DNA of 28,488 nucleotides from the UHGV virus genome UHGV-0289470; one strand, written 5' to 3'. The stretch is from a virus. Within the stretch, counting starts at the first letter, position 1. Each line of letters starts with the position of its first letter. Both the position numbers and the translations under genes were made by a program. Below, in pieces: positions 1-22,638 of this stretch. Under the pieces are notes generated by a model. It did not search any database, had not been told where the DNA came from, and saw only the letters and a program-made list of their open reading frames with translations.

Positions 1-120
1 GGAATGGCATCAGACATCAGTCCGATTAGTAGGGCTTTTAAGTATGCGCTTGATGAAATCACAAAGAAAAAATCCCCGGCCGCCACCGAGGATTTTAAGC
101 AAATTGATATGCAATTCTGA
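1..120 (+). CDS. cII: cII-like transcriptional activator, C-terminal fragment (5' end lies outside the window)
   Basis: Frame-1 ORF runs off the left edge and stops at TGA 118-120. Its tail ...ITKKKSPAATEDFKQIDMQF resembles the lambda CII C-terminus as I recall it (..KKRPAATERSEQIQMEF). Position immediately upstream of the replication genes fits. Confidence 0.6.
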   Translation, partial: GMASDISPISRAFKYALDEITKKKSPAATEDFKQIDMQF

Positions 121-143
121 GGTCATTACTGGATCAATCCACA
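64..143 (-). ncRNA. oop: oop-like antisense RNA overlapping the 3' end of cII; ends approximate
   Basis: On the minus strand, revcomp of 100-143 contains GATCCAGTAATGACCTCAGAA, matching the 5' part of lambda oop RNA as recalled. Revcomp of 64-96 forms a GC-rich hairpin (plus-strand arms 69-79 and 86-96, one mismatch) followed by UUUUUUCUUUGU, an intrinsic terminator reading leftward. A CATAAT -10-like hexamer on the minus strand (plus 148-153) sits just upstream of the predicted 5' end. Confidence 0.5.
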
Positions 144-152
144 GGAGTCATT

Positions 153-314
153 ATGACAAAACGTCGTAAGAAATACCAGGAAAAAGAAGAGATTCGACAC
201 CCTGATTCACCTGAGGGATTAGTGGTAGCCGCAGCAAATAACAGGGCGTTCGCAGAGCGCCTTGTTGGTGTTTACAGACTAGCCAAAGCAGGAGTGAAAC
301 ATGGGCGTCGTTAA
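153..314 (+). CDS. hypothetical 53-aa ORF (MTKRRKKYQEKEE...); possibly a recombination remnant rather than a gene
   Basis: ATG 153 preceded by AGGAG (143-147). The flanking sequence caggagtcattATGACAAA matches the lambda cII-O junction as recalled, but the reading frame diverges after three codons and stops at 312-314. Overlaps the predicted oop promoter region. Not in the ORF track (<60 aa). Confidence 0.25.
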   Translation: MTKRRKKYQEKEEIRHPDSPEGLVVAAANNRAFAERLVGVYRLAKAGVKHGRR

Positions 315-363
315 GTTAGCTGATTACAGGCATAACCCTGTACAACATCAGGAGGCATCCAGT

Positions 364-1191
364 ATGGGGTATGTCTCTATACACCGCCAGTTTATGGACA
401 GCAGGCTCTATAAGGACTCTCAGGCAGTACATCTTTGGCTTCACTTAATCCTCAAGGCTAATCACGAATCTACTGTCGTCAATACGGATATCGGGCCGAT
501 AACTGTTGATCGCGGTCAGATGATAACTGGACGCCCGTCGCTGGTCAGAGAAACATTCATCCCCGACAACAAAGTTCGGAGCTTATTACGGACTTTTGAG
601 TCGAAAGGGATGCTTAATATTTGCTCGATGGGGAAGAAATTTAGCCTGTTTACAATCTTTAAATATGACGATTTTCAGGCAAAAAATTGTCCAACGGTTG
701 TCCAACGGTTGTCCAACGCAAACACCAGTAATGGCGCGGCTCTCAGCGGAGATTGTCCAACGGTTGTCCAACGGTTGTCCATAAACAATAATATAAATAA
801 TATCTCTAATACTGACGTATTAGAGAGTACCGCAGCAGACAAAAAGTCTGACAAGAAAAAACCTTCCGTTAGCTGTCAGGATGTTGTCGATGCTTACCAC
901 GAAATCCTTCCTGAAGCGCCAAGAATCCGCGCACTGAATGACAAGCGTAAAAACCAGATCCGAACGTTCTGGCGCAAAGCCGGAGTGATAACCCGCCAGC
1001 TTGACGGGCATGGTTTCACGATGCAGGACTGGAGAAATTATTTGAGCTACGTAGGCGAAAATTGCCGATGGATGTTCGAAGAGCGCCCAAACCATCAACG
1101 CGGAACCGTCTGGCACAAAAAGGGATTTGATTTCCTGCTTAACGATAATACCTACCTGAAAGTTCGTGAGGGTGAACACGATGACCGATAA
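364..1191 (+). CDS. replication initiator (O-like replisome organizer with N-terminal winged-helix domain); the origin is embedded in the gene
   Basis: ORF track 301..1191. I prefer ATG 364 because of a strong AGGAGG at 350-355 and because the N-terminus MGYVSIHRQFMDSRLYKDSQAVHLWLHLILKANHE looks like the start of replisome-organizer N-terminal domains. ATG 301 is an alternative start. Iterons lie in the middle of the ORF, as with lambda O. Stop TAA overlaps the helicase start. Confidence 0.75.
   Translation: MGYVSIHRQFMDSRLYKDSQAVHLWLHLILKANHESTVVNTDIGPITVDRGQMITGRPSLVRETFIPDNKVRSLLRTFESKGMLNICSMGKKFSLFTIFKYDDFQAKNCPTVVQRLSNANTSNGAALSGDCPTVVQRLSINNNINNISNTDVLESTAADKKSDKKKPSVSCQDVVDAYHEILPEAPRIRALNDKRKNQIRTFWRKAGVITRQLDGHGFTMQDWRNYLSYVGENCRWMFEERPNHQRGTVWHKKGFDFLLNDNTYLKVREGEHDDR
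687..785 (+). repeat. origin iterons: two clusters of three tandem 11-bp repeats TTGTCCAACGG (687-719 and 753-785), followed by an AT-rich stretch (781-830)
   Basis: Direct read: ttgtccaacgg ttgtccaacgg ttgtccaacgc ... ttgtccaacgg ttgtccaacgg ttgtccataaa, then aaacaataatataaataatatctctaatactgac. This is ori-like architecture inside the initiator gene; the repeats encode the repeated QRLSNG/CPTVVQRLS peptide segment. Confidence 0.75.
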
Positions 1192-2617
1192 TTTTTATGC
1201 GCCGCCCCATAGCATCGAGGCAGAGCAGGCGGTGATTGGTGGATTGCTTCTGGATGATGACAGCAGTGAGCGCGTCCAGAAAGTTCTGGCGATGCTGAAG
1301 CCTGACTCATTTTACTGCCGGCCACACAAAATCCTTTTCGAAGAAATAACCAGAATGCACCGTGAGCAAAAGCCAGTAGATGGCCTGACGCTTTTCGATG
1401 AACTGGAGCGTAAATCGTTAACGGCGTCTGTTGGCGGTTTTGCTTATATCGCTGAGATCGCAAAGAACACGCCAAGCGCAGCAAACATCGTTGCCTATGC
1501 AATGCAGGTTCGTGAAACCGCAATGGAACGCTACGCCATCAACCGCATGACTGAAGCGACGGAATTGCTCTATTCCCGCAACGGAATGACTGCAACGCAG
1601 AAGTACGAAGCTATTCAGGCGATTTTCACGCAACTGACAGACCATGCAAAAACCGGATCGCGTCGCGGCCTTCGTTCATTTGGTGAGGTCATGGAAGACT
1701 GGGTTAGCGACCTTGAGAAGCGATTTGACCCATCAGGCGAACAACGGGGAATGAGCACAGGGATCCCATCGCTGGACAGGATGCTGTCACCGAAAGGTCT
1801 GGTGAAAGGCTCTCTGTTTGTCATTGGCGCTCGCCCTAAGATGGGGAAAACGACGCTATACAGCCAGATGGCAATCAATTGCGCAGTGCATGAGAAAAAG
1901 CCCGCTTTGATGTTCAGCCTTGAAATGCCAGGTGATCAGATACTGGAAAAACTGGTAGGGCAGAAGTCTGGTGTTAACCCGAATATTTTTTACCTTCCGG
2001 CGACAAATGACGCTGATGACGGCTATCAGGGTGATTACGATGGTGCCTTCAACAGGGCGATCGAAACAGCTAATCGCTTGAGTGAAATCGACATGCTTTA
2101 CATCGACGACACGCCGGGATTATCTCTGGCTCAAATCGTCAGCGAAAGCCGTCGAATCAAGCGAGAAAAAGGATGTGTTGGCATGATTCTGGTCGATTAC
2201 CTGACACTAATGACCGCTGAGAAGGCCGATCGCAACGACCTTGCTTACGGCATGATCACCAAAGGACTGAAGAACCTTGCCAAAGAGCTTGATTGCGTTG
2301 TTGTGCTTCTGACGCAGCTTAACCGCGCACTGGAAAGCCGAACCAATAAACGCCCATTACCAAGTGACTCACGAGATACAGGGCAGATTGAACAGGATTG
2401 CGATTATTGGGTTGGGATCCATCGTGAAGGCGCTTTTGATGACAGTGTTCCACCTGGTGAAACCGAACTAATCCTTCGTCTCAATCGTCATGGCAATACC
2501 GGTACGGTGTATTGCATTCAGGCAAATGGCGCTATTTATGACACAGACCAACAGTCTGCTGAAATTCGCCGCCGTGAACGCGAGGAACCGCAGTCCAAGA
2601 AGAAAGGGGGATTCTGA
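1181..2617 (+). CDS. DnaB-family replicative DNA helicase (P22 gene 12-like)
   Basis: ORF track 1166..2617; ATG 1181 overlaps the initiator stop. Walker A GARPKMGKTT, N-terminal DnaB-like domain (HSIEAEQAVIGGLLLD), length about 478 aa. Confidence 0.9.
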   Translation: MTDNFYAPPHSIEAEQAVIGGLLLDDDSSERVQKVLAMLKPDSFYCRPHKILFEEITRMHREQKPVDGLTLFDELERKSLTASVGGFAYIAEIAKNTPSAANIVAYAMQVRETAMERYAINRMTEATELLYSRNGMTATQKYEAIQAIFTQLTDHAKTGSRRGLRSFGEVMEDWVSDLEKRFDPSGEQRGMSTGIPSLDRMLSPKGLVKGSLFVIGARPKMGKTTLYSQMAINCAVHEKKPALMFSLEMPGDQILEKLVGQKSGVNPNIFYLPATNDADDGYQGDYDGAFNRAIETANRLSEIDMLYIDDTPGLSLAQIVSESRRIKREKGCVGMILVDYLTLMTAEKADRNDLAYGMITKGLKNLAKELDCVVVLLTQLNRALESRTNKRPLPSDSRDTGQIEQDCDYWVGIHREGAFDDSVPPGETELILRLNRHGNTGTVYCIQANGAIYDTDQQSAEIRRREREEPQSKKKGGF

Positions 2618-2646
2618 TGACCATCTACATCACTGAGCTAATAACA

Positions 2647-2677
2647 GGGGCTATTTACACAGTAGCCCTTTTTTATT
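2647..2677 (+). terminator. rho-independent terminator downstream of the helicase gene (tR2-like position)
   Basis: Stem GGGCTA (2648-2653) / TAGCCC (2663-2668), 9-nt loop, then TTTTTTATT (2669-2677). Confidence 0.55.
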
Positions 2678-2701
2678 GGATTGGAAGTGAGAGGTAATAG
2701 C

Positions 2702-2869
2702 GTGAGTGAACCATCTAAACATACGCAGTATTTCCCATTCTGCCAGCGTCATATTGAGCCTGAGCGAGATGATTTAGGCGATCTGTACATTACACATGAA
2801 GGCGGATTTATTTATGTGCACGACGAAGTACTACACGATGACGATTACACATTTACGCCACTTAACTAA
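2702..2869 (+). CDS. hypothetical small acidic protein (accessory slot)
   Basis: ORF track 2681..2869 (TTG start). GTG 2702 with GAGG at 2691-2694 is the more plausible start. No recognisable domain. Confidence 0.35.
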   Translation: MSEPSKHTQYFPFCQRHIEPERDDLGDLYITHEGGFIYVHDEVLHDDDYTFTPLN

Positions 2870-2893
2870 CATCCAGCACTCTGATGGAGAGGA

Positions 2894-3094
2894 ATGATGA
2901 CAACGATTGGCGTTCTTTACGACGAGTGGACGAAAGAGCGATTCAGGCGTCATTACAAGATGGCAAAGGTCATCCGCAACAAGCCCTATCGCAATGACTA
3001 CCGCAAGGTCATGGCAAAAAACATGCAGAAGAATATCGACAAGATATTCCCACGTGGAAAGGCCGTTTGGCGCTTACTTAAAAACGAGTGGTGA
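2894..3094 (+). CDS. hypothetical small basic protein (accessory slot)
   Basis: ORF track; ATG 2894 or 2897 after GGAGAGG (2886-2892). Lys/Arg-rich 66 aa, no recognisable domain. Confidence 0.45.
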   Translation: MMTTIGVLYDEWTKERFRRHYKMAKVIRNKPYRNDYRKVMAKNMQKNIDKIFPRGKAVWRLLKNEW

Positions 3095-3461: not shown

Positions 3462-3908
3462 ATGAAGCAAATATACATACTTCGCAACGAAGCAATCAGA
3501 AATAACGCCATAGACGCCATTCTCTCACTACCCATCGACGGCAAGTCACCCCACGAAGTCCACGTTAGAGAACCCAAACGCAGCAAAGCGCAGAATGACC
3601 GTATGTGGCCGATGCTGAACGATGTTTCTCGTCAGGTGCTATGGCATGGTCAACGGCTGGCACCGGAAGACTGGAAAGACCTGTTCACTGCCCTGTGGCT
3701 TAAGACCAAAAAACTGGAGCAACGAAGTGTGCCTGGTATCGACGGTGGCGTAGTCATGCTTGGCGTGCGTACCAGCAAAATGCGAAAGGCCAGCATGACT
3801 GAGCTTATCGAAATCATGTTCTGGTTCGGCTCAGAGCGCAACGTGCGGTGGAGTGATGACTCCCGGCGAGAGTATGAATGGTCACAACGAAAAGGTAGGG
3901 ATGCATGA
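3462..3908 (+). CDS. ninB: NinB/Orf-family recombination protein
   Basis: Strong AAGGAG RBS at 3451-3456. The translation shares the lambda NinB pattern as recalled (..QNDRMW..L.DVSRQV.WHG..L..E.WK..FTA..). Confidence 0.8.
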   Translation: MKQIYILRNEAIRNNAIDAILSLPIDGKSPHEVHVREPKRSKAQNDRMWPMLNDVSRQVLWHGQRLAPEDWKDLFTALWLKTKKLEQRSVPGIDGGVVMLGVRTSKMRKASMTELIEIMFWFGSERNVRWSDDSRREYEWSQRKGRDA

Positions 3909-4432
3909 CTATCAAATCAAATACGCCAGCGTCAGATAGGTATCGGCTTATTGAGGATTATCTGTATTTAGACGGAGATACAGTCAGATACAAAAAGGAC
4001 TCGCTAAAACACCCCAACCACAGCCACCGGGCAGGAGATGAAATTAAAACATCGATAAATGGATCTGGGTATAGACAGGTGTGTTTTGCAGGCATTCAGA
4101 TGTTTGTTCACGTAGTTGTTTTTGCGCTGCACAACAAAAGAATGCCATTGAAAAATATTGACCATATTAACGGAAACAGGCTGGACAATTCCCCAAAAAA
4201 TCTTAGGGAGGCAGGCCGGATAGCAAACAGCCGAAATCAGAAAACTAAGTGCAATAGCCGTTCTGGAATAAAAAATGTTTTATGGAACAAGCAAAAAAAT
4301 AAATGGGCCGTTCAAGTGCGCACAGATTTTGGCCGGTTGTATTTTGGGCTCTATGAAGATCTTGAACTTGCTTGTTTGGTTGCCAGTGAGGCTATCAACA
4401 AATATCACGGACAATATGCGAAGGTTGTATGA
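3905..4432 (+). CDS. HNH homing-type endonuclease with C-terminal AP2-like DNA-binding domain
   Basis: HNH motif ..NIDHINGNRLDNSPKNLR..; C-terminal segment KWAVQVRTDFGRLYFGLYEDLELACLVASEAINKYHG is typical of AP2 domains. ATG overlaps the ninB stop (ATGA). Confidence 0.7.
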   Translation: MTIKSNTPASDRYRLIEDYLYLDGDTVRYKKDSLKHPNHSHRAGDEIKTSINGSGYRQVCFAGIQMFVHVVVFALHNKRMPLKNIDHINGNRLDNSPKNLREAGRIANSRNQKTKCNSRSGIKNVLWNKQKNKWAVQVRTDFGRLYFGLYEDLELACLVASEAINKYHGQYAKVV

Positions 4433-9404: not shown

Positions 9405-9690
9405 CGGCAGTACCACGAAGCAACCCAAGCCAGTAAGTGGGGAAATAACACTGGCAGCCACTGAAAGATGAACCTCCTGCCTTATGGCAAAAAAGATTCT
9501 TTGTGGTGGCGGACTGATGGAAAGACATCGGTTATTGCAGAGGCCATTCAATGAGTGGTCTCGACAATGGCTTATACCCTGCACGGGATAACTTAACTGA
9601 TATCCCTTTTAACGGATAAACGGAGCCAACAATGGCAGAGAATGTCGGCATTATGGCAGTGAAATTTGGATAAATCGGAGATTAGTACAT

Positions 9691-10041
9691 ATGCCGCCAC
9701 GAATCCCAAAAGCCTGCCGTGCTCGAGGTTGCCGTAATACCACGACAGACCCGTCAGGCTACTGCGAAAGCCACAAAAGCGAAGGCTGGAAGCAATACAA
9801 GCCAGGACAATCCCGTCATCAGCGCGGCTACGGTTCGAAGTGGGACGTTATCCGTGCGCGTGTGCTGAAACGTGACAAAGGCCTGTGTCAGTTATGTCTG
9901 CGTGCCGGGATGGTGCGTGAAGCTAAAACCGTTGACCACATCATCCCTAAAGCGCATGGCGGCACCGATGCAGACAGTAATCTGCAGAGCCTGTGCTGGC
10001 CGTGCCATAAGGCGAAGACGGCCCGTGAACGGTTGAAGTGA
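9691..10041 (+). CDS. HNH endonuclease associated with the terminase (HK97 gp74-like)
   Basis: Cys-rich N-terminus, HNH core ..VDHIIPKAHGG..N.QSLCWPCH..; immediately upstream of TerS. Confidence 0.8.
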   Translation: MPPRIPKACRARGCRNTTTDPSGYCESHKSEGWKQYKPGQSRHQRGYGSKWDVIRARVLKRDKGLCQLCLRAGMVREAKTVDHIIPKAHGGTDADSNLQSLCWPCHKAKTARERLK

Positions 10042-10067
10042 TAATAATTCTCAACTGCCTGAGGGGA

Positions 10068-10127
10068 GGGGCGGGTCAAATCCCTGCGGCCTGACGTCTT
10101 CCGGACTGCCCGCCCCATCGTTTTTTT
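10068..10127 (+). other. GC-rich imperfect palindrome plus T7 tract between HNH and terminase genes; terminator and/or cos-associated site
   Basis: GGGGCGGG (10068-10075) pairs with CCCGCCCC (10109-10116) around an internal GACGTC-centred sub-palindrome, followed by TTTTTTT (10121-10127). Confidence 0.4.
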
Positions 10128-10166
10128 ATACCCGCGAAAAATGAAATTTAACCAGGAGTGCCGCAT

Positions 10167-10661
10167 ATGGCTGGAACGGCGGGGCGTTCCGGGCGTCGCC
10201 CCAAGCCAACGGCGCGCAAGGCGCTGGCCGGAAACCCCGGCAAGCGAGCCCTGAACAAAGATGAACCTGTTTTTACGCCCATCAAAGGTGTTGAGCCACC
10301 AGAGTGGTTCGCTGAAGAAGATCTCCCTCTCGCCACGATCATGTGGCAACTGACAACCAAAGAACTCTGCGGTCAGGGCCTGTTGTGCGTGACTGACCTC
10401 GCGGTGCTTGAGCGGTGGTGCGTGGCCTATGAGTTCTGGCGACGTGCCGTGAAAAATATTGCCATACAGGGCAACACCATCACCGGTGCAATGGGCGGCA
10501 GGGTCAAAAATCCGGAGCTGACCGCCAAAAAAGAACAGGAGTCCGAGATGAGCAGCACGGGGGCAATGCTCGGACTCGACCCCAGCAGCCGCCAGCGTCT
10601 GATTGGCCTGGCGGGGCAGAAGAAAGCCACTAACCCGTTTCTGAAAATCATCGAGTCATGA
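10167..10661 (+). CDS. terminase small subunit (P27 family)
   Basis: ORF track 10158..10661; ATG 10167 after AGGAG (10154-10158). N-terminus [30 protein letters not shown] is typical of P27-family TerS. Confidence 0.75.
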
Positions 10662-12391
10662 GCCGGAAATCTTACCCCAACGTAAATGCTGCCAATCAGT
10701 ATGCCCGTGATGTTGTGCGCGGAAAGATTGTGGCCTGCCAGTTTGTGATTCAGGCCTGCCAGCGCCATCTTGATGACCTGATGGCGGAAAAAAGTAAGTC
10801 GTTTCGTTACCGCTTCGACAAGGACCTGGCTGAACGGGCCGCCAAATTTATTCAGCTGTTGCCGCACACCAAGGGTGAGTGGGCATTTAAACGGATGCCC
10901 ATCACGCTGGAGCCGTGGCAGCTATTTGTGATCTGCTGTGCGTTTGGCTGGGTCAATAAAGGGTCCCGGCTGCGCCGCTTCCGGGAGGTGTATACCGAAA
11001 TCCCCCGTAAGAACGGCAAATCGGCAATCTCTGCCGGTGTTGCCCTGTATTGTTTTGCCTGTGATAACGAGTTTGGCGCGGAAGTGTATTCCGGTGCCAC
11101 GACAGAGAAACAGGCGTGGGAAGTCTTTCGCCCGGCGCGACTGATGTGTAAACGCACACCCATGCTGACGGAAGCGTTCGGGATTGAGGTTAACGCCTCA
11201 AACATGAATCGTCCGGAGGATGGCGCGCGGTTTGAACCGCTGATCGGTAACCCCGGTGATGGTTCATCACCCCACTGTGCGGTGGTGGATGAATATCACG
11301 AGCACGCCACCGATGCGCTTTACACCACGATGCTTACCGGGATGGGGGCGCGACGTCAGCCACTGATGTGGGCCATTACTACTGCCGGGTACAACATTGA
11401 GGGGCCGTGCTACGACAAGCGGCGGGAAGTCATCGAGATGCTCAACGGCTCGGTGCCCAACGATGAACTGTTCGGGATCATCTATACCGTTGATGAAGGT
11501 GACGACTGGACCGACCCGCAGGTGCTGGAAAAAGCCAATCCAAATATTGGCGTGTCGGTTTATCGCGAATTTTTGTTAAGTCAGCAGCAGCGTGCGAAAA
11601 ATAACGCCCGTCTGGCAAACGTCTTTAAAACAAAACACCTCAATATCTGGGTGTCGGCGCGTTCGGCGTATTTCAACCTGGTGAGCTGGCAGAGCTGCGA
11701 GGATAAATCACTGACCCTTGAGCAGTTCGAGGGGCAGCCGTGCATTCTGGCCTTTGACCTGGCGCGTAAGCTGGATATGAACAGCATGCCGCGACTTTAT
11801 ACCCGCGAGATTGACGGTAAAACGCATTACTACAGTGTGGCCCCGCGTTTCTGGGTACCGTATGACACGGTGTACAGCGTCGAGAAAAATGAAGATCGAC
11901 GGACAGCCGAACGCTTTCAGAAATGGGTGGAAATGGGCGTCCTGACCGTTACCGATGGTGCAGAGGTGGATTATCGCTACATCCTCGAAGAGGCCAAAGC
12001 GGCGAACAAAATCAGCCCGGTCAGCGAGTCACCCATCGACCCCTTCGGGGCGACCGGGCTCTCACATGACCTTGCTGATGAAGGCCTGAACCCCGTCACC
12101 ATCATTCAGAACTACACCAACATGTCCGACCCGATGAAAGAGCTGGAAGCGGCAATTGAATCGGGGCGCTTTCATCATGATGGCAATCCCATCATGACCT
12201 GGTGTATCGGCAACGTGGTCGGCAAAACCATTCCGGGTAACGATGATGTGGTGAAGCCCGTCAAAGAGCAGGCGGAAAACAAAATCGATGGTGCAGTTGC
12301 GCTGATTATGGCGGTTGGCAGAGCCATGCTGTACGAGAAAGAAGACACGCTGTCTGACCACATTGAATCCTATGGGATCCGCTCGCTTTAA
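10658..12391 (+). CDS. terminase large subunit
   Basis: 577 aa, HK97-type large-terminase architecture (N-terminal ATPase, C-terminal nuclease); start overlaps the TerS stop. Confidence 0.85.
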
Positions 12392-12402
12392 CTGAGGTAA
12401 TT

Positions 12403-12585
12403 ATGATCATGCTGATTCTCGCGCCTCTGGTGGGCGTGCTGGGTGCGCTTTTGCTGGTGTATGGTGCCTGGCTGATTTATCCCCCGGCGGGGTTTGTTGT
12501 TGCCGGGGCGCTGTGCCTGTTCTGGTCGTGGCTGGTGGCGCGATATCTCGACCGTACACAGCCGTCTGTCGGCGGAGGTAAATAG
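12403..12585 (+). CDS. small hydrophobic (two-TM) membrane protein
   Basis: 60 aa, almost entirely hydrophobic ([26 protein letters not shown]...); GAGGT RBS. Confidence 0.4.
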
Positions 12586-13826
12586 TGTTCTTTTCGGGAT
12601 TATTTCAACGAAAAAGTGACGCACCGGTGACCACGCCAGCAGAGCTGGCGGATGCTATCGGGCTGTCATATGACACCTATACCGGAAAGCAGATCAGCAG
12701 CCAGCGGGCCATGCGACTGACGGCGGTTTTTTCCTGCGTCAGGGTGCTGGCTGAGTCGGTCGGGATGTTGCCCTGCAACCTGTATCACCTGAACGGCAGC
12801 CTGAAACAGAGAGCCACCGGCGAACGTCTGCATAAACTGATCTCCACGCATCCCAATGGCTATATGACGCCGCAGGAGTTCTGGGAGCTGGTGGTCACCT
12901 GTCTGTGCCTGCGGGGAAACTTTTACGCCTACAAAGTGAAAGCATTTGGCGAAGTGGCTGAACTGCTGCCCGTCGATCCCGGCTGTGTGGTACCGAAGCT
13001 TAACAGTAGCTGGGAGCCGATCTATCAGGTCACATTCCCGGATGGCTCCACGGATGTACTGAGCCAGGAGGATATCTGGCATGTGCGCACGCTGACGCTG
13101 GATGGACTGGTGGGGCTGAATCCCATAGCCTATGCCCGCGAGGCAATATCGCTGGCGGCAGCGACCGAAGAGCACGGGGCCAGACTGTTCAGCAATGGCG
13201 CGGTGACGTCGGGTGTGTTGCGTACAGAGCAGACGCTGTCAGATCAGGCTTATGAGCGCCTGAAGAAAGATTTTGAGGAGCGTCACACCGGGCTTGGCAA
13301 TGCTCACCGCCCGATGATCCTTGAGATGGGGCTGGACTGGAAGTCGATGGCGCTGAACGCCGAGGACAGCCAGTTCCTGGAAACCCGCAAGTTTCAGCTT
13401 GAAGAAATCTGTCGTCTGTTCCGGGTGCCGTTGCACATGGTGCAGAACACCGATCGAGCCACCTTCAACAATATCGAAGAGCTGGGGCTGGGATTTATCA
13501 ACTATTCACTGGTGCCGTATCTGACCCGCATCGAACAGCGGATCAACACCGGACTGGTACGAAAAAGTAAGCAGGGCGTTTATTACGCCAAATTTAACGC
13601 CGGGGCGTTACTGCGCGGGGATATGAAGTCCCGTTTTGAAGCCTACGCCACCGGGATCAACTGGGGAATTTACTCTCCCAATGACTGCCGCGACCTGGAA
13701 GATATGAATCCGCGTCCCGGTGGTGATGTCTATCTCACACCGATGAACATGACCACGAAACCCTCCGATGGCAGTAAAGCCGGTAAGCAGAAGGATAACG
13801 CCAATGCAGACGAAACAACGTCTTGA
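12585..13826 (+). CDS. portal protein (HK97 family)
   Basis: 413 aa; GTG start with GGAGG 6 nt upstream; position and size right for an HK97-type portal. Confidence 0.8.
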   Translation: MFFSGLFQRKSDAPVTTPAELADAIGLSYDTYTGKQISSQRAMRLTAVFSCVRVLAESVGMLPCNLYHLNGSLKQRATGERLHKLISTHPNGYMTPQEFWELVVTCLCLRGNFYAYKVKAFGEVAELLPVDPGCVVPKLNSSWEPIYQVTFPDGSTDVLSQEDIWHVRTLTLDGLVGLNPIAYAREAISLAAATEEHGARLFSNGAVTSGVLRTEQTLSDQAYERLKKDFEERHTGLGNAHRPMILEMGLDWKSMALNAEDSQFLETRKFQLEEICRLFRVPLHMVQNTDRATFNNIEELGLGFINYSLVPYLTRIEQRINTGLVRKSKQGVYYAKFNAGALLRGDMKSRFEAYATGINWGIYSPNDCRDLEDMNPRPGGDVYLTPMNMTTKPSDGSKAGKQKDNANADETTS

Positions 13827-14454
13827 TGTACCGCTGAGTCTGAAATCTGTCAGTGACTCCGGTGAGTTTGAAGGGTATGGCTCCGTCTTTGGTGTAAAGG
13901 ACAGCCACGATGATGTGGTGATGTCCGGGGCATTTGCTGCTTCCCTGCGGGCGTGGAGTGACAGAAAAGCGTTACCTGCGCTGCTCTGGCAGCACCGCAT
14001 GGATGAACCCATCGGTGTTTACACCGAAATGAAGGAAGACGATGTCGGGCTTTACGTCAGGGGACGGTTGCTTATTGATGATGATCCCCTCGCAAAACGC
14101 GCACATGCACACATGAAGGCCGGTTCGTTAACCGGCCTTTCTATTGGGTACGTCCTGAAAGACTGGGAATACGACCGGAGCAAAGAAGCCTTTCTGCTGA
14201 AAGAAATCGACCTCTGGGAAGTCAGCCTGGTGACGTTCCCGTCTAACGACGAGGCGCGGATCAGCGACGTCAAGAACGCACTGGCCCGCGGGGAAATCCC
14301 CGAACAGAAAAAAATCGAAAGAGTCCTGCGTGATGTCGGACTCTCCCGTACCCAGGCCAAAGCATTCATGGCCGGGGGCTATGGCGCACTGTCCCTGCGC
14401 GACGCTGAGGATGTGGGCTCTGCACTGAATGCACTGAAAAATCTGAACTTCTAA
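13804..14454 (+). CDS. prohead maturation protease (HK97 family, S78)
   Basis: ORF track 13768..14454; ATG 13804. Motifs ..GYGSVFGVKDSHDDVV..GAF.. typical of prohead proteases; overlaps the portal 3' end. Confidence 0.8.
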   Translation: MQTKQRLDVPLSLKSVSDSGEFEGYGSVFGVKDSHDDVVMSGAFAASLRAWSDRKALPALLWQHRMDEPIGVYTEMKEDDVGLYVRGRLLIDDDPLAKRAHAHMKAGSLTGLSIGYVLKDWEYDRSKEAFLLKEIDLWEVSLVTFPSNDEARISDVKNALARGEIPEQKKIERVLRDVGLSRTQAKAFMAGGYGALSLRDAEDVGSALNALKNLNF

Positions 14455-14468
14455 TCAGGATAAATACG

Positions 14469-15674
14469 ATGGCGGTTGATATTAAAGATGTCGAACAGGT
14501 CGCGCAGGAGCTGCAGCAGAAGTTTGACGACTTCAAAGCAAAGAACGACAAGCGCGTGGATGCGATTGAGCAGGAAAAATGCAAGCTTGCCGGGCAGGTG
14601 GAAACCCTGAACGGGAAACTCAGCGAGCTGGAAAACCTCAAAAGCGATCTTGAAAAAGAGCTGCTTGAGCTGAAACGTCCGGCAGGTGGTGCGCAAAATA
14701 AACTGGCCACCGAGCATAAAGAGGCGTTTGTGGGCTTCCTGCGTAAAGGCCGTGAAGACGGTCTGCGCGATCTGGAGCGTAAGGCATTGCAGGTGGGTAC
14801 CGATGAAGACGGTGGCTACGCCGTGCCGGAAGAATTGGATCGCAACATTCTTAACCTGCTGAAAGATGAAGTGGTGATGCGTCAGGAAGCCACGGTGATC
14901 ACCGTTGGCGGTTCCGACTACAAAAAACTGGTGAATCTGGGCGGCACGGCTTCCGGATGGGTGGGGGAAACGGATACGCGATCCCAGACTGCCACCTCCA
15001 GACTGGAGCTGATTGAACCTCTCATGGGGGAAATCTACGGCAACCCGCAGGCCACCCAGAAAATGCTGGACGATGTCTTCTTCAACGTGGAGGCCTGGAT
15101 CAACAGCGAGCTGGCAACCGAATTTGCCGAACAGGAAGAAATTGCCTTTACCTCAGGCGATGGCACCAAGAAGCCGAAAGGGTTCCTGGCGTATGAATCC
15201 ACTGATGAAACCGATAAGGTCCGGGCGTTCGGCAAACTTCAGCATATTGTATCCGGCGAAGCGACTGCGGTGACCGCAGACGCCATTATCAAACTGATTT
15301 ACACGCTGCGTAAGGCACACCGCACTGGCGCGAAGTTCATGATGAACAACAACAGCCTGTTTGCCATCCGTCTGCTGAAAGACAGCGAGGGTAATTATCT
15401 GTGGCGTCCGGGGCTGGAGCTGGGGCAGCCGTCCTCTCTGGCGGGTTACGGTATCGCTGAAAACGAACAGATGCCGGATATCGCCGCTGATGCGAAAGCC
15501 ATTGCATTTGGTAACTTCAAACGGGGTTACACCATCGTTGACCGTATCGGCACCCGCATTCTGCGTGACCCGTACACCAATAAACCGTTTGTCGGTTTTT
15601 ATACCACCAAGCGCACCGGCGGGATGCTGGTCGATTCGCAGGCCATCAAACTGCTGAAGATTGCAGCGGCGTAA
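14469..15674 (+). CDS. major capsid protein (HK97 fold) with N-terminal coiled-coil delta/scaffold domain
   Basis: 401 aa; the first ~100 aa are coiled-coil-rich (QELQQKFDDFKAKNDKR...LEKELLELKR), followed by a capsid core. Confidence 0.85.
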   Translation: MAVDIKDVEQVAQELQQKFDDFKAKNDKRVDAIEQEKCKLAGQVETLNGKLSELENLKSDLEKELLELKRPAGGAQNKLATEHKEAFVGFLRKGREDGLRDLERKALQVGTDEDGGYAVPEELDRNILNLLKDEVVMRQEATVITVGGSDYKKLVNLGGTASGWVGETDTRSQTATSRLELIEPLMGEIYGNPQATQKMLDDVFFNVEAWINSELATEFAEQEEIAFTSGDGTKKPKGFLAYESTDETDKVRAFGKLQHIVSGEATAVTADAIIKLIYTLRKAHRTGAKFMMNNNSLFAIRLLKDSEGNYLWRPGLELGQPSSLAGYGIAENEQMPDIAADAKAIAFGNFKRGYTIVDRIGTRILRDPYTNKPFVGFYTTKRTGGMLVDSQAIKLLKIAAA

Positions 15675-15681
15675 TCACTCA

Positions 15682-15702
15682 GGGGCGTGGAACCGCGCCC
15701 CC
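15682..15702 (+). other. GC-rich stem-loop just after the capsid gene (no U-tract)
   Basis: GGGGCG (15682-15687) / CGCCCC (15696-15701). Confidence 0.4.
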
Positions 15703-15723
15703 TGTTCTGACGGGTGAAGAATC

Positions 15724-15924
15724 ATGATCCTGAAACAAGATCTGAAATGGTCACCGGACGGTATGCGTGTTGAGGTCATTCGGGCCGGTGAGTATGACGA
15801 CGGGGCGCTTCCTGCCCGGGTGCAGGAGATTGCACTTCAGGCCGGGTTAGCAGAGCGCGGAACCAGTGCAAAAAGCAGTAAAGCGACAAAAGAGAAAAAA
15901 GCCACGACCAGTAAAGAGGGCTGA
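15724..15924 (+). CDS. hypothetical small protein with Lys/Ser/Thr-rich tail
   Basis: ORF track; 66 aa; sits between capsid and connector genes. Confidence 0.35.
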   Translation: MILKQDLKWSPDGMRVEVIRAGEYDDGALPARVQEIALQAGLAERGTSAKSSKATKEKKATTSKEG

Positions 15925-15926
15925 GT

Positions 15927-16250
15927 ATGCTTCTGACAATGGAAGAGATTAAAGCCCAACTCCGGCTGGATGAGGATTTCGATGCTGATGACCGCCATCT
16001 GCAACTGCTGGCCTGTGCGGCGCAAAAGCGGACGGAAACGTATCTGAACCGGAAGCTCTATGCTCCGGATGAAACCATTCCGGACAGCGATCCGGACGGG
16101 CTGCACCTGCCGGATGATATTCGTCTGGGGATGCTGATGCTTATCAGCCATTTTTACGAAAACCGCTCGTCGGTTACGGAAGTGGAGAAACTCGACATGC
16201 CGCAGAGTTTTGGCTGGCTTGTCGGCCCGTACAGGTACTTTCCGCAATGA
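15927..16250 (+). CDS. head-tail connector protein (gp6-like)
   Basis: 107 aa; N-terminus MLLTMEEIKAQLRLDEDFDADD.. is typical of the gp6-like connector family. Confidence 0.65.
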   Translation: MLLTMEEIKAQLRLDEDFDADDRHLQLLACAAQKRTETYLNRKLYAPDETIPDSDPDGLHLPDDIRLGMLMLISHFYENRSSVTEVEKLDMPQSFGWLVGPYRYFPQ

Positions 16251-16657
16251 AAATTCGTCAGGCGCAGACCAGCGCAACCTACATTCTGCCGGACCCCGGC
16301 GAACTGAATAAACGCGTCCTGATCCGCCAGCGGGTGGATATGCCCGCGGATAACTTTGGCGTGGAGCCTCAATACCCGGTTGCGTTCCGGGCATGGGCGA
16401 AGGTTATCCAGACCAGTGCCACCACCTGGCAGGAAACCGCGCAGACCGGAGATGCCATCACCCATTACATCACCATTCGTTACCGCCGGGGGATCACTGC
16501 TGATTATGAGGTGGTCTGTGATGACAGTGTGTACCGGGTGAAACGTCAGCGTGATCTGAACGGGGCGCGGCGCTTTCTGTTGCTGGAGTGTACAGAGCTG
16601 GGCGAATTTACGCAGAGTCACGGAGGCAGCAATGGCGACTCCCTTTTTGCACGTTGA
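16247..16657 (+). CDS. head closure / head-tail adaptor protein
   Basis: 136 aa; ATGA overlap with the upstream gene; position in the neck module. Confidence 0.55.
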   Translation: MKIRQAQTSATYILPDPGELNKRVLIRQRVDMPADNFGVEPQYPVAFRAWAKVIQTSATTWQETAQTGDAITHYITIRYRRGITADYEVVCDDSVYRVKRQRDLNGARRFLLLECTELGEFTQSHGGSNGDSLFAR

Positions 16658-17138
16658 TGTTCAGCAGCCCGCGGAGATGCGCTTTAACCGCGCCCGTGTC
16701 CGGCGGGCGTTTGTCACGATTGGGCAGCGTCATATGCGTGATGCCCGTCGGCTGGTGATGCGCCGTGCGCGGTCGGCACCGGGTGAAAACCCCGGTTATC
16801 AGACCGGACGCCTGGCTCGTTCGATTGGTTATATGGTGCCGAGAGCCAGTAAAAAGCGAGCCGGTTTTATGACACGCATTGCCCCTAACCAGCGCAACGG
16901 GAGGGGGAACCGGATGATCTCTGGTGACTTCTATCCGGCGTTTCTGTTTTTTGGTGTCCGGGGAGGAGCAAAACGTCGTCGTAGTCATCATCGTGGTGCA
17001 TCCGGTGGCAGCGGCTGGCGACTGGCTCCACGTAATAACTTCATGGTGGAAACTCTTGAAAAGAACCGCAGCTGGACACGCTATTTTCTGGCGCGGGAAT
17101 TGCGTAAATCACTGAAGCCGGAGCGACGACACAGATGA
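16632..17138 (+). CDS. HK97 gp10-like neck/tail-completion protein
   Basis: 168 aa, Arg-rich; CGGAGG RBS at 16621-16626. Confidence 0.5.
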   Translation: MATPFLHVDVQQPAEMRFNRARVRRAFVTIGQRHMRDARRLVMRRARSAPGENPGYQTGRLARSIGYMVPRASKKRAGFMTRIAPNQRNGRGNRMISGDFYPAFLFFGVRGGAKRRRSHHRGASGGSGWRLAPRNNFMVETLEKNRSWTRYFLARELRKSLKPERRHR

Positions 17139-17695
17139 AACTGACGCCTGTTATTGCTGCACTGCGTGCCCGCTGTCCGTATTTTGAAAACCGGGTTGCA
17201 GGCGCGGCCCAGTTCAAAAATCTGCCGGAGGTCGGAAAGCTGAAACTCCCGGCGGCATATGTTGTACCGGGTGATGATTCTCCGGGAGAAAACAAAAGCC
17301 AGACCGACTACTGGCAGGAGCTGAAAGAGGGTTTCTCCGTGGTTGTCATACTGAGTAACGGGCGTGATGAGCGCGGTCAGTTTGCTTCGTATGATGTGGT
17401 GGACGATGTCCGGCAGATGCTCTTTAAGGCCCTGCTGGGCTGGAACCCGGAGGCGTGCGGTAACCCGATTACCTATGACGGCGGCACGCTGCTGGATCTG
17501 AATCGTCATGAGCTGATTTATCAGTTCGATTTTTCGGTCATCAGCGAGCTGACCGAAGACGATACCCGCCAGCAGGATGACCTGAACAGTCTGGATGAAC
17601 TGCGAACGCTGGCGATTGATGTTGATTATCTCGATCCCGGTAACGGGCCTGACGGCGATATCGAACATCACACCGAAATAACCCTTCCTTCCTGA
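17135..17695 (+). CDS. tail-proximal virion protein (Mu gp37/DUF1834-like)
   Basis: 186 aa; lies just upstream of the sheath gene in Mu-like order. Confidence 0.45.
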   Translation: MKLTPVIAALRARCPYFENRVAGAAQFKNLPEVGKLKLPAAYVVPGDDSPGENKSQTDYWQELKEGFSVVVILSNGRDERGQFASYDVVDDVRQMLFKALLGWNPEACGNPITYDGGTLLDLNRHELIYQFDFSVISELTEDDTRQQDDLNSLDELRTLAIDVDYLDPGNGPDGDIEHHTEITLPS

Positions 17696-17703
17696 GGATC
17701 CTC

Positions 17704-17874
17704 ATGTTTGTCAAACCTGTTAAAGGGCGGTCAGTGCCTGACCCTGCCCGCGGCGACCTTTTGCCTGCCGAAGGGCGAAATGTTGACGAGAACAACTACT
17801 GGCTGCGCCGTGAAGCAGCGGGTGATATCCGGCGCGTGAATAAAAAGGTGAATACCGATGACGATAAGCTTTAA
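17704..17874 (+). CDS. small conserved protein upstream of the tail sheath (DUF2635-like)
   Basis: Not in the ORF track (56 aa). ATG 17704, stop TAA 17872-17874, overlaps the sheath start. Product MFVKPVKGRSVPDPARGDLLPAEGRNVDENNYWLRR... Confidence 0.4.
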   Translation: MFVKPVKGRSVPDPARGDLLPAEGRNVDENNYWLRREAAGDIRRVNKKVNTDDDKL

Positions 17875-19354
17875 CACCATTCCGTCGAATACGCTGGTTC
17901 CGTTGTTTTATGCGGAAATTGATAACCAGGCGGCGAATACTGCACAGGACAGCGGAGCATCGCTGCTGATTGGTCATGCCAATAACGGTGCAGAGATTGT
18001 TGCCAACAGTCTGGTGCTGATGCCATCGGCAGACTATGCACGCCAGATTTGTGGTGCGGGAAGTCAGCTGGCGCGTATGGTCGAGGCTTATCGCCAGACC
18101 GACCCGTTTGGTGAACTGTATGTGATTGCCGTTCCTGAATCCACGGGCGCGGCGGCAACAGTTACGCTGACGGTGACCGGCGCGGCAACCGAAACCGGCA
18201 CGGTGAATGTTTATGTGGGACGTACCCGCGTGCAGGCACCGGTGACCAACGGCGATAACGTCGCGACGATTGCCAGCAGTATCCAGGATGCCATCAATGC
18301 CGTTCCGACCCTGCCGTTTACGGCCTCATCTTCGGCTGGCGTGGTCACACTGACCGCGCGTCATAAGGGGCTTTGCGGGAATGAAATTCCTGTCAGCCTC
18401 AATTACTACGGCTTTGGTGGGGGCGAAGTGCTGCCAGCGGGCGTACAGATTGCCGTGGCGACGGGTACCGCCGGAACGGGCGCTCCTGTTCTCACCGGCG
18501 CGGTGGCTGCAATGGCGGATGAGCCGTTTGATTATATCGGCCTGCCGTTCAACGACACGGCCTCCGTTAACACGCTGGTGACCGAGATGAACGATACCAG
18601 CGGTCGCTGGAGCTATGCGCGTCAGCTGTATGGTCATGTGTATACGGCAAAGATCGGCACGCTGTCAGAACTGGTGACCGCAGGTGACCAGTTTAACCAG
18701 CAGCACATTACCCTGGCGGGATACGAAAAAGAGACCCAGACGCCTGCCGACGAACTGGCGGCAAGCCGTACCGCCCGCGCAGCGGTGTTTATTCGCAACG
18801 ATCCGGCACGTCCCACGCAGACCGGTGAGCTGGTGGGTATGCTGCCTGCGCCGAAGGGGAAACGGTTCACGATGACCGAGCAACAGACCCTGCTGTCTCA
18901 TGGCGTGGCAACGGCGTATGTCGAAAGCGGGGTGCTGCGCATTCAGCGTGATGTCACCACGTACAGGAAAAACGCTTACGGTGTTGCGGATAACAGCTAC
19001 CTCGACAGCGAGACGCTGCATACCAGCGCGTATGTGCTGCGCAAACTGAAATCCGTCATTACCAGTAAGTACGGGCGTCACAAGCTTGCCAGCGACGGTA
19101 CCCGCTTTGGTCCCGGTCAGGCGATTGTCACACCGGCGGTGATTAAAGGGGAACTGCTGGCAACCTACCGTCAGCTTGAGCGTGCGGGGATCGTGGAAAA
19201 CTACGAACTGTTTAAGCAGTACCTGGTTGTGGAGCGTGATGCCAGCGATCCGAACCGCCTGAACACGCTGTTCCCGCCTGACTATGTTAACCAGTTGCGT
19301 GTCTTTGCCGTGGTTAACCAGTTCCGTCTTCAGTATTCAGAGGAGTCTGCATAA
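17858..19354 (+). CDS. contractile tail sheath protein (Mu gpL-like)
   Basis: 498 aa; size and position upstream of the tube gene. Confidence 0.8.
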   Translation: MTISFNTIPSNTLVPLFYAEIDNQAANTAQDSGASLLIGHANNGAEIVANSLVLMPSADYARQICGAGSQLARMVEAYRQTDPFGELYVIAVPESTGAAATVTLTVTGAATETGTVNVYVGRTRVQAPVTNGDNVATIASSIQDAINAVPTLPFTASSSAGVVTLTARHKGLCGNEIPVSLNYYGFGGGEVLPAGVQIAVATGTAGTGAPVLTGAVAAMADEPFDYIGLPFNDTASVNTLVTEMNDTSGRWSYARQLYGHVYTAKIGTLSELVTAGDQFNQQHITLAGYEKETQTPADELAASRTARAAVFIRNDPARPTQTGELVGMLPAPKGKRFTMTEQQTLLSHGVATAYVESGVLRIQRDVTTYRKNAYGVADNSYLDSETLHTSAYVLRKLKSVITSKYGRHKLASDGTRFGPGQAIVTPAVIKGELLATYRQLERAGIVENYELFKQYLVVERDASDPNRLNTLFPPDYVNQLRVFAVVNQFRLQYSEESA

Positions 19355-19710
19355 TGGCCCGTATCGGGGGAACCTGTTATTTCAAAATTGACGGTCAACA
19401 GCTATCGCTGACCGGCGGCATTGAGGTGCCCATGAACAGGACGGTTAATGATGACATCATCGGCCTGGACGGTTCAGTGGACCGCAAGGAAACTCACCGT
19501 GCACCTTATGTCAAAGGGACCTTCAAGGTGCCGAAGAATTTTCCGGTGAGCAAAATCACCTCGTCTGATGAGATGACCATCACTGCCGAGCTGGCGAACG
19601 GTCAGGTCTATGTACTGTCGTCTGCCTGGCTGCACGGCGAAGCGAACCATAATGCCGAAGAAGGTACGGTTGATCTTGAGTTCCACGGTGAAGAAGGGGA
19701 TTACCAGTAA
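19354..19710 (+). CDS. tail tube protein (Mu gpM-like)
   Basis: 118 aa, directly after the sheath gene. Confidence 0.75.
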   Translation: MARIGGTCYFKIDGQQLSLTGGIEVPMNRTVNDDIIGLDGSVDRKETHRAPYVKGTFKVPKNFPVSKITSSDEMTITAELANGQVYVLSSAWLHGEANHNAEEGTVDLEFHGEEGDYQ

Positions 19711-19979
19711 TGAAAGAGCTTGAGTTAAAGAAACCTATTACTGCTCATGGCGAGACACTCTCCGTACTTGAGTTTGATGAGCCAACCGGGAAAGATGTCC
19801 GCGAACTGGGGTATCCCTACCAGATGAATCAGGATGAGTCAGTCAGACTTCTGGCGCATGTGGTGTCGAAATACATTGTGCGGCTGGCGAAAGTGCCGCA
19901 AAGCTCTGTCGACCAGATGTCTCCGGCAGACCTGAATGCAGCGGCGTGGCTTGTGGCTGGTTTTTTCCTCCAGGCCTGA
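19710..19979 (+). CDS. tail assembly chaperone (G-like, short form)
   Basis: 89 aa, immediately upstream of the tape measure gene; contains a slippery site near its 3' end. Confidence 0.7.
   Translation: MKELELKKPITAHGETLSVLEFDEPTGKDVRELGYPYQMNQDESVRLLAHVVSKYIVRLAKVPQSSVDQMSPADLNAAAWLVAGFFLQA
19961..19967 (+). other. programmed -1 ribosomal frameshift slippery heptamer T_TTT_TTC
   Basis: In the chaperone frame the codons are ..GGT TTT TTC..; a -1 slip enters the 19946..20128 frame, which stays open to 20128. Confidence 0.55.
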
Positions 19980-20128
19980 CGGCTGAATACCTCACTGATC
20001 GCTTCTTTGACTGCGCCAGCTACTGGCGCATTAATCCCTTCGAATTGCTGAATATGCCGATCAGTGAAATTCCCTTGCTGGTCAGTCAGGCAAACAGGAT
20101 AGAGCAGGAGAAACGCACACATGGCTGA
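19961..20128 (+). CDS. -1 frame extension of the tail assembly chaperone (GT-like long form)
   Basis: ORF track 19946..20128, overlapping the 3' end of the chaperone; ends a few nt into the tape measure gene. Confidence 0.5.
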   Translation, partial: FFPPGLTAEYLTDRFFDCASYWRINPFELLNMPISEIPLLVSQANRIEQEKRTHG

Positions 20129-21953
20129 ATTTGAGCTTAAGGCGTTGATCACCGGTGTCGACAGGCTTTCTCCCGCGCTGTCGAAAATGCAAAAGAAAAT
20201 CCGGGGATTTAAACGCCAGGCGGAAGAAGCGTCACAGGGTGGGCTGGCGCTTGGTGGAGGACTGGCAGCGGGGCTGACGCTTTCCCTGAAATCTTATGCC
20301 GATCAGGAAAACGCCGCTACCGGGCTGAAAGTCGCCATGATGGATGCGAACGGCGAGGTTGGAAAGAGCTTTCAGGACATCAATAAACTGGCTATTGGCC
20401 TGGGTAACCAGCTACCCGGTACAACGGCTGATTTCCAGAACATGATGCAGATGCTGGTGCGTCAGGGGATCCCGGCAGAAAACATTCTGGGTGGTGTGGG
20501 TAAAGCGACAGCTTATCTTGCGGTACAACTGAAAAAAACACCGGAAGCGGCTGCTGAGTTTGCTGCAAAGATGCAGGATGCTACCGGAACGGCGTCAGAA
20601 GACATGATGGGGCTGTTCGACACTATCCAGAAGGCGTTTTATCTGGGCGTTGACGATACCAACATGTTGTCCTTCTTCACTAAAACCAGTTCTGTTCTGA
20701 AGATGGTGAACAAGGACGGTCTTCAGGCTGCACAGAGCCTTGCCCCCATCAGCGTCATGATGGATCAGATGGGGATGAACGGGGAGTCGGCAGGTAATGC
20801 CCTGCGAAAAGTTATCCAGTCCGGATTAAGTGTTAAGAAAATCAGGGACGTCAATAAAGTCATGGCCCGCCAGAAACTCGGGGTACAGCTCGATTTTACT
20901 GACGGCAAAGGAAGTTTTGGCGGTCTTGATAACATGTTCAGGCAACTGGCAAAGTTGCGAAAACTGACCGACGTTAAGCGAACAGGCGTACTTAAGGCAA
21001 TATTTGGTGATGATGCCGAAACCCTTCAGGTGGTCAATGCCCTGATCGATAAAGGAAAGGATGGTTACGATCAGATCCAGCAGAAGATGAATAAACAGGC
21101 CAGCCTGAATAAACGTGTTCAGGCACAGCTTGGTACGCTGTCCAACCTGTGGGAGGCAATGACGGGGACCGCAACTAACGGTCTTGCAGCTATTGGCGGC
21201 GCATTTTCTGGTGACGCTAAAAATATCACGCAATGGCTGGGGGAGTTGGGGGAAAAATTCACGAAGTTTGCGGATGAAAATCCCCGGGTTATTCGCGGCG
21301 TCGTCGGGCTTGCTGCCGGTCTTGCGATTCTGAAACTGGGATTGATGGGCGTGGGCAGTGCCATCAGTATTGTCAGCAGGATTATGTCGATGACGCCGAT
21401 TGGCATGATTGCGACGGCGATTGCTCTGGCTGCGGGATTAATTATCACTAACTGGGATGTTGTCGGACCTTATTTTAAGAAGCTCTGGGAAACCATTGGT
21501 CCTTATTTTGAGGCTGGCTGGGAACTTCTGAAGAAAGTTTTTGCCTGGTCGCCGCTGGGAATGGTGATCAATAACTGGGGACCGGTTGTTAAGTGGTTTC
21601 AGGATATGTGGGACAAGCTGAAGCCAATTATTGAGTGGTTTACCGACAGTTCCGGTGACACGGTCGATGCCATTAACTCTGCGCAGTGGGGCGCGGGTGC
21701 TTATGATGCTTATGGGACGGGAATACCGACGCGGGGATACACACCTTATCCGGCGGTGGATCCGGCTCAGTCAAACAACGCCTCCGATGCCACAGGCTCG
21801 AATCCCTTCATGATTAACAAAGCTTCTGTGCCAAAAGTTGATGGTGAGATCAAGGTATCTTTTGTGAATTCGCCTCCGGGTATGCGGGTTATGGAAACGC
21901 GATCCAGCGGTTTTGATGTCAGCCATGATGTTGGCTATACGCGGTTCAGGTAG
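20121..21953 (+). CDS. tail tape measure protein
   Basis: 610 aa, Ala/Gly-rich helical protein with transmembrane-like central segments, downstream of the chaperone pair. Confidence 0.85.
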   Translation: MAEFELKALITGVDRLSPALSKMQKKIRGFKRQAEEASQGGLALGGGLAAGLTLSLKSYADQENAATGLKVAMMDANGEVGKSFQDINKLAIGLGNQLPGTTADFQNMMQMLVRQGIPAENILGGVGKATAYLAVQLKKTPEAAAEFAAKMQDATGTASEDMMGLFDTIQKAFYLGVDDTNMLSFFTKTSSVLKMVNKDGLQAAQSLAPISVMMDQMGMNGESAGNALRKVIQSGLSVKKIRDVNKVMARQKLGVQLDFTDGKGSFGGLDNMFRQLAKLRKLTDVKRTGVLKAIFGDDAETLQVVNALIDKGKDGYDQIQQKMNKQASLNKRVQAQLGTLSNLWEAMTGTATNGLAAIGGAFSGDAKNITQWLGELGEKFTKFADENPRVIRGVVGLAAGLAILKLGLMGVGSAISIVSRIMSMTPIGMIATAIALAAGLIITNWDVVGPYFKKLWETIGPYFEAGWELLKKVFAWSPLGMVINNWGPVVKWFQDMWDKLKPIIEWFTDSSGDTVDAINSAQWGAGAYDAYGTGIPTRGYTPYPAVDPAQSNNASDATGSNPFMINKASVPKVDGEIKVSFVNSPPGMRVMETRSSGFDVSHDVGYTRFR

Positions 21954-22016
21954 TGTACAAAATGATTAATGTGTTTTTGTCTGGCATAATTTGGGTTTTC
22001 AGCTTTAAGTAGTTAA

Positions 22017-22022
22017 TATAAT
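22017..22022 (+). promoter_or_regulatory. possible -10 hexamer (TATAAT) of a moron-specific promoter
   Basis: TATAAT at 22017-22022 in the AT-rich spacer upstream of the moron ORF; no good -35 hexamer seen. Confidence 0.25.
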
Positions 22023-22052
22023 CATTCCTTACAAATGATTGAAGGGATGATT

Positions 22053-22547: not shown

Positions 22548-22566
22548 TAATTAAAAATATTAGGTT

Positions 22567-22623
22567 CCCGCCACATCTTCTGCGATGTAAATAACTGACA
22601 AAGCAGATTTGGCGGGTTTTTTT
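22567..22623 (+). terminator. intrinsic terminator closing the moron
   Basis: CCCGCCA (22567-22573) / TGGCGGG (22610-22616) with a structured loop, then TTTTTTT (22617-22623). Confidence 0.45.
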
Positions 22624-22638
22624 GTATCCGGAGTTTAT

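Follow-up and report, generated by a model that had tools for sequence, protein, structure and literature searches.

Hayes et al. 2012 (PMC3349717) described a 33-bp homology in the oop-pO region of 23 lambdoid phages, a boundary that corresponds to the 'sequence 5' of Clark et al. 2001 (HK620), as quoted in PMC3349717. [quoted passage not shown] P22-like phages (P22, L, and ST160) carry the same patch in the gene order c1 - oop - orf48 - gene 18 - gene 12, and their small ORF (orf48) starts at the ATG within the patch and overlaps the start of the initiator. The GenBank record of Sf6 annotates the patch as 'bsq5; boundary sequence' at 27827-27859. A literature search for lambdoid boundary sequences and Sf6 returned no match; Casjens 2004 (Sf6) and Clark et al. 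2001 (HK620) are cited here via the GenBank feature, PMC3349717, and PMC3029335.

We analysed a stretch of 28,488 nt from the UHGV virus genome UHGV-0289470 (hereafter the window; coordinates are window positions). Sf6 bsq5 corresponds exactly to window 128-160, where 31 of 33 bases are identical to lambda and 31 of 33 to bsq5 itself. Membership in boundary sequence 5 was defined as at least 90% identity to the 33-nt consensus, and the window's copy belongs to it by this definition. The patch is placed between the stop codon of a cII-like gene (118-120) and the first ORF of the replication module, whose ATG (153) it contains. The mosaic joint found here is genuine, but it is already annotated and published, and we regard its detection as a correct rediscovery of a known boundary, because base 38694, at which the lambda/P22 hybrid switches, is window 161, the first departure from lambda. 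Compared with the other phages that carry boundary sequence 5, nothing essential differs in the window.

The window was aligned with lambda without gaps by placing ATG 153 opposite the start codon of lambda O (NC_001416, 38686). Identity is 16/60 at positions 1-60 and 37/52 at 61-112, reaches 45/48 at 113-160, through the O start codon plus five bases, and then drops to 10/40 at 161-200 and 59/203 over the whole of 161-363. Positions 121-160, ggtcattactggatcaatccacaggagtcattATGACAAA, match lambda at 38 of 40 bases, and right of 160 the identity is 25-29%, which is the random level. In blastn searches, 59-160 matched lambda at 82% (E 2e-26), and 161-1200 gave no significant match to lambda (best E 0.35). 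Similarity is thus lost abruptly at about 160, as judged from the drop in the identity profile and from the blastn result beyond it. The last bases in common with lambda are ATGACAAA, which amount to two and two-thirds codons of the O frame. The window contains a single copy of a 32-nt core of the matching stretch; 100 shuffled sequences contained no copy, even when three mismatches were tolerated. The hexamer AAATAC at 171-176, also present in lambda, was considered as residual homology; it lies 2 nt out of register and is best taken as chance. The first-pass annotation had noted a match to the lambda cII-O junction at about 130-160 that includes the O start codon, had expected an alignment to break off sharply there, and had described the frame opened at 153 as leaving lambda after about three codons and spanning 53 codons (153-314); the alignment bears out all three statements.

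Lambda corresponds to the window in the oop region, the terminator hairpin, the -10 element with its upstream TG, the ribosome binding site, and the ATG. It differs in the -35 element of pO and in everything rightward: a 53-aa gene is interposed in the window, and a DnaB-type helicase is present where lambda has P as the partner of its initiator. The joint is not particular to the window, because positions 1-1200 are 99% identical to HK106, mEp234, and HK75. Together with HK629, these phages are 97.5-99% identical over this interval and have the same gene order and overlaps. Sf6 is 99% identical to the window from 128 onwards, but its gene to the left of the patch is of the P22 c1 type. The records of all five phages (HK106, mEp234, HK75, HK629, and Sf6) list cII, a 53-aa hypothetical protein ('similar to HK97 Gp53'), an initiator, and a DnaB-type helicase, and the P22-like phages have the same helicase type.

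IMG/VR was scanned with the motif as an exact pattern, which yielded more than 120 loci; the full motif was required and many of the loci are near-identical prophages, so the counts are of non-independent events. Three classes of ORF open at the motif ATG, namely lambda O (55 loci), gp53-type genes (50 loci), and P22-type orf48 (19 loci). At least five cII/c1 types make up the left flanks, and almost all pairings of left and right flank are represented. Single-base variants inside the motif assort with both flanks, which fits crossovers inside the patch. Base 149 is C in 55/55 lambda-O loci and A in 43/50 gp53 loci; the window has C together with gp53, which is a minority combination.

We consider it very probable that 113-160 is a conserved oop-pO patch that divides the immunity/cII region from the replication module and serves module exchange, with a real gp53 gene to its right. 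The minus strand of the patch would supply the pO -10 element and the first ~14 nt of oop RNA, which would run back into the end of cII and stop at a hairpin terminator. The plus strand would supply the ribosome binding site and start codon for whichever gene opens the replication module, be it lambda O, a P22-like orf48 followed by gene 18, or the gp53 gene that is found in the window, HK97, Sf6, HK106, and ES18. Because the patch is kept nearly identical among otherwise dissimilar phages, it would provide a short homology at the place where modules exchange, and we infer that recombination used it as a substrate.

Functional constraint alone could account for the conservation of the patch without a crossover there. 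The patch would then be a dense regulatory cassette, and the flanking joints would stem from illegitimate recombination and selection (the Hendrix/Juhala model) rather than from homologous crossover. Each base of 129-158 can indeed be assigned to a signal (oop start, pO -10, candidate LexA site, ribosome binding site, or ATG), and divergent Cronobacter, Enterobacter, and Citrobacter phages keep a -10-like element and CAAC(A/G)GGAG within otherwise different sequence. Conserved boundary sequences are also absent at most phage mosaic joints (PMC3029335). We nevertheless think this account unlikely, given that the variant bases within the patch are combined in various ways with the flanks on either side, that the lambda/P22 hybrid switches at exactly this position (PMC3349717), and that three right-hand classes have one and the same junction base.

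Left of the patch, the window starts inside the cII-like activator gene and contains its 3' end (1-120, plus strand, stop TGA at 118-120; Pfam Phage_CII E 1.2e-5, PHROG 191 E 1.2e-9). The equivalent gene is annotated CII in HK106 and HK629. Terminator scanning and folding predict an oop-type antisense RNA gene at 63-142 on the minus strand, with its 5' end at ~142; the lambda oop start, 38675 (PMC3349717), maps to window 142. The predicted RNA overlaps the last ~55 nt of cII and has two hairpins after the 5' end, with the intrinsic terminator stem at 96..69 and a T-run at 68-63. One feature sought in an oop gene was a minus-strand intrinsic terminator within the 3' part of cII and some 75-80 nt from the RNA start, and such a terminator is present here. 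The same hairpin architecture folds in all cII/c1 types, and pairing in the terminator stem is maintained across these types by compensatory changes (CG<->UA and CG<->GC), the window's sequence included. A feature 'similar to coliphage lambda oop RNA' in the HK629 record corresponds to window 66-135. A scan of window 1-3000 against Rfam at E <= 1 gave no match; oop has no Rfam family.

The 33-bp boundary sequence (128-160) lies within the longer stretch of lambda-like identity (113-160), and both strands of it carry recognisable signals. On the minus strand, the pO -10 hexamer CATAAT is the complement of 150-155 and has a TG (157-158) upstream as an extended -10 (150-158). The CAT of this hexamer is, read on the other strand, the ATG at 153, and unrelated genes therefore share their first two or three codons, MT(N/K). 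A Shine-Dalgarno sequence, AGGAG (143-147, plus strand), lies 5 nt before this ATG. The distance between the pO- mutation and the first O codon is 2 bp (PMC3985674). As controls for a simple promoter scan, pO reads TTGAGT-17-CATAAT in lambda and TGGTCA-17-CATAAT in the P22-like phage ST160, both with the same hexamer and TG. With TGGTAT (2/6) at the -35 position, the window yielded no pO call in the scan. Expression of oop in gp53-type phages would therefore rest on the extended -10, and pO and oop are presumed to be active in this phage. PMC5869508, in a passage that cites Lewis et al. 1994, places a LexA-binding sequence within oop-pO; a LexA-box-like palindrome read from the window, CTGG-N8-ACAG at 129-144, is a candidate, and we would guess that it is that site. 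A putative DnaA box in the patch (CAATCCACA, 7/9) is a weak match that nothing else supported, and it was dropped.

The ORF that opens in the patch (153-314, plus strand) encodes a 53-aa member of the HK97 gp53 / Sf6 gp42 / ES18 gp58 family (PHROG 1331) and is annotated as HK97 gp53, Sf6 gene 42, or ES18 gp58 in relatives. Its product matches PHROG 1331 at E 1.4e-37, with residues 1-53 on profile positions 1-53 of 53, and a gp53-type gene occupies the same slot in 97 phage records. Homologues in Cronobacter, Enterobacter, Citrobacter, Lelliottia, and Erwinia prophages have 62-80% identity and are all 51-55 aa long. The order cII-like gene, gp53, initiator, DnaB-type helicase recurs without exception in eight further contigs. 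When the gene is compared with its copies in the Cronobacter, Erwinia, and Enterobacter phages, the differences cluster at third codon positions (8/4/23, 11/7/28, and 9/3/26 for the three positions), and dN/dS is 0.13, 0.10, and 0.07, respectively. Purifying selection spans the whole length of the sequence (overall range of dN/dS 0.07-0.15), and the family alignment has 8 invariant and 13 nearly invariant columns. No Pfam or NCBIfam family matched gp53, and a literature search for HK97 gp53 found only unrelated proteins named 'gp53'. An AlphaFold model built from a 29-sequence alignment (mean pLDDT 68) has helices at 21-29 and 31-46; it predicts that the charged N-terminus is disordered and that residues 21-46 form a helical region.

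These data bear on the first-pass annotation, which had taken the locus for a recombination scar. Read as a one-off event, the start of lambda O would have been fused to foreign DNA, the 53-codon frame would be meaningless, and the initiator would begin at 364. The end of lambda similarity after ATGACAAA agrees with such an event, and one part of the reading stands, in that a lambda-like cII/oop end does meet a non-lambda replication module. The 53-codon frame as a by-product does not stand, nor does the view that it is not a conserved gene: it is a full-length member of PHROG 1331, the length of which stays at 51-55 aa between genera, and its dN/dS is about 0.1. Divergent homologues start with MPK, MSK, or MRK, and the start of the family is therefore independent of the joint with lambda, since these members have other second codons. 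On comparative sequence grounds, 153-314 is a genuine conserved gene and not a scar.

The orf48 of P22 (PHROG 1913) resembles gp53 only in its first 11 residues, which are encoded opposite the interval from -10 to -35 of pO. Within the gp53 gene, the stretch TACCAGGAAAAAGA at 174-187 is invariant, synonymous sites included, in five divergent homologues, and ACCAGGA is common to this stretch and P22-type orf48, in register. This is where the -35 element of pO should be, and the conservation suggests a nucleotide-level constraint on top of coding. PHROG 1913, which orf48 matches (e.g., L129 692-838), is labelled 'tail protein'; the label is doubtful because orf48 sits fixed between c1/oop and gene 18.

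The stop codon of gp53 overlaps the ATG of the initiator at 301 by 14 nt, as ATGGGCGTCGTTAA (301-314), and the same arrangement is found in 13 loci. Owing to this overlap, gp53 and the initiator are probably translationally coupled. A stronger version would make gp53 a leader ORF, the translation of which brings ribosomes to the overlapping initiator start, with a product that has no function of its own. The overlap and an internal Shine-Dalgarno sequence are kept in 13/13 loci examined, P22 orf48 has an analogous ATGAGTAA overlap in the same slot, no family of known function matches gp53, and the structure model has only moderate confidence, all of which are compatible with such a role. The purifying selection along the entire protein, however, and the 8 invariant and 13 nearly invariant columns would be unneeded for pure ribosome delivery, and we judge a mere leader to be improbable. 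The preferred reading is that gp53 is a gene in its own right, placed directly before the initiator.

The initiator (301-1191, plus strand) is of the P22 gp18 / Sf6 gp43 type, as supported by PHROG 345 (E 3e-85), by annotations, and by conservation of its leader. Its ORF opens at 301 and contains an in-frame ATG at 364, which the first-pass annotation had preferred as the start, with 301 as the alternative. ATG 364 has a good AGGAGG 8 nt upstream, and similarity to P22-like gp18 begins at 362-366; both would also agree with a scar from which the initiator starts afresh. Records of relatives start the initiator at the equivalent of 301, and ATG 301 with the leader MGVVKLADYR is kept in 13 loci, before three unrelated initiator bodies. 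A Cronobacter phage departs from the window at four bases of codons 5-10 without altering any residue, and by a 6-nt indel that preserves the reading frame. P22-like gp18 has K at the position of the window's Met 364. Since the leader changes only synonymously, the indel is in frame, and the P22-like protein has K at 364, the initiator most likely starts at 301 rather than 364, and the preference for 364 is not upheld. With both the small gene and the upstream start conserved, a one-off scar is highly improbable. A second isoform from an internal start at 364 was also considered and is unproven, as the Met is absent from P22-like gp18.

The first-pass annotation had called the initiator unlike lambda O, and in sequence this is correct: BLASTP against lambda O gave E 4.6, which is no similarity, and Pfam Phage_rep_O (PF04492) did not match at E <= 0.01. 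The only family match is the broad PHROG 345, 'replication initiation O-like'; no Pfam or NCBIfam family was assigned, and a PDB sequence search returned nothing at E <= 1.

A second mosaic joint lies inside the initiator frame, at 326-330, just after the shared leader. Irrespective of the body, gp53-linked initiators all begin with the leader M-[G/A/N]-V-[V/A]-K-[L/I]-x-D-Y-R. We distinguish three bodies: that of the window and P22 gp18 (...GMGF/YVSIHRQF), that of HK97, which is lambda-O-like (...VE.RVA.L.DG), and a third kind (...RSSRVDNRK.GHFALF). Among 48 gp53-bearing IMG/VR loci, the sequence stays window-like past the leader in 24; in 22 it passes at 326-327, in frame, into the HK97/lambda-O-like body. 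P22-like gp18, in contrast, is 85% identical to the window initiator only from 362-366 onwards, and begins with MSNISNLAEAR... where the window has MGVVKLADYR.

The lambda O N-terminus, TNTAKILNFGR, and STAKLVKSKAT of Dps are ClpX N-motif-1 degrons (PMC12723719, PMC8138137), for which we looked for a hydrophobic-hydrophobic-basic-hydrophobic pattern near the N-terminus, in an unstructured leader. The GVVKL, NVAKL, or AVVKL found in all gp53-linked initiators resembles the lambda O and Dps degrons, as compared by eye and without a statistic; the P22-like leader MSNISNLAEAR does not fit the degron pattern. We tentatively propose, as a possibility that falls short of being likely, that the gp53 module consists of the small gene plus a portable initiator leader, fused in frame at about codon 10 to at least three unrelated bodies, which would replace the degron-bearing N-terminus of lambda O. 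If the leader is a degron, lambdoid phages would swap initiator bodies and keep a common ClpXP-instability tag, and 326-330 would be a domain-level joint kept in frame by selection.

Further along the initiator gene, a repeat search located a putative replication origin at 686-815; the rep_origin of Sf6 is annotated at the equivalent place. The 11-bp iteron TTGTCCAACGG is present in two triplets (686-718 and 752-784, 66 bp apart start to start), with six iterons in all at 11-bp spacing (686-784), followed by an A+T-rich run. The organisation resembles that of lambda O, with iterons and an A+T-rich origin inside the initiator gene. The next gene encodes a DnaB-type replicative helicase of the P22 gp12 type (1181-2617, plus strand; Pfam DnaB and DnaB_C, and annotations in relatives), the ATG of which overlaps the end of the initiator by 11 nt (1181-1191). 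The three genes of the replication module are thus linked by stop/start overlaps, at 301-314 and at 1181-1191.

Elsewhere in the window, an ORF for an HNH_3 endonuclease (3905-4432, E 5e-10) directly follows NinB (3462-3908, Pfam NinB E 4e-48) in the nin region and may be a homing-endonuclease insertion. The structural genes at 9690-25000 (terminase, portal, tail sheath, and tape measure) are 97% identical to those of Shigella phages SfII, SfI, SfIV, and SfV and related E. coli myoviruses. With this match, the window pairs an early region of the HK97/Sf6 type with a late region of the contractile-tail SfV type.

We recommend that annotations retain the 53-codon ORF as a gene, place the initiator start at 301, and add a minus-strand oop RNA. 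The locus is a textbook-quality example of lambdoid module swapping and leaves current understanding unchanged. It illustrates how a regulatory patch of ~33-48 bp serves both strands, with the promoter of an antisense RNA on one and a ribosome binding site and start codon on the other. The patch sits exactly where immunity and replication modules exchange, and as a result unrelated genes share their first codons.
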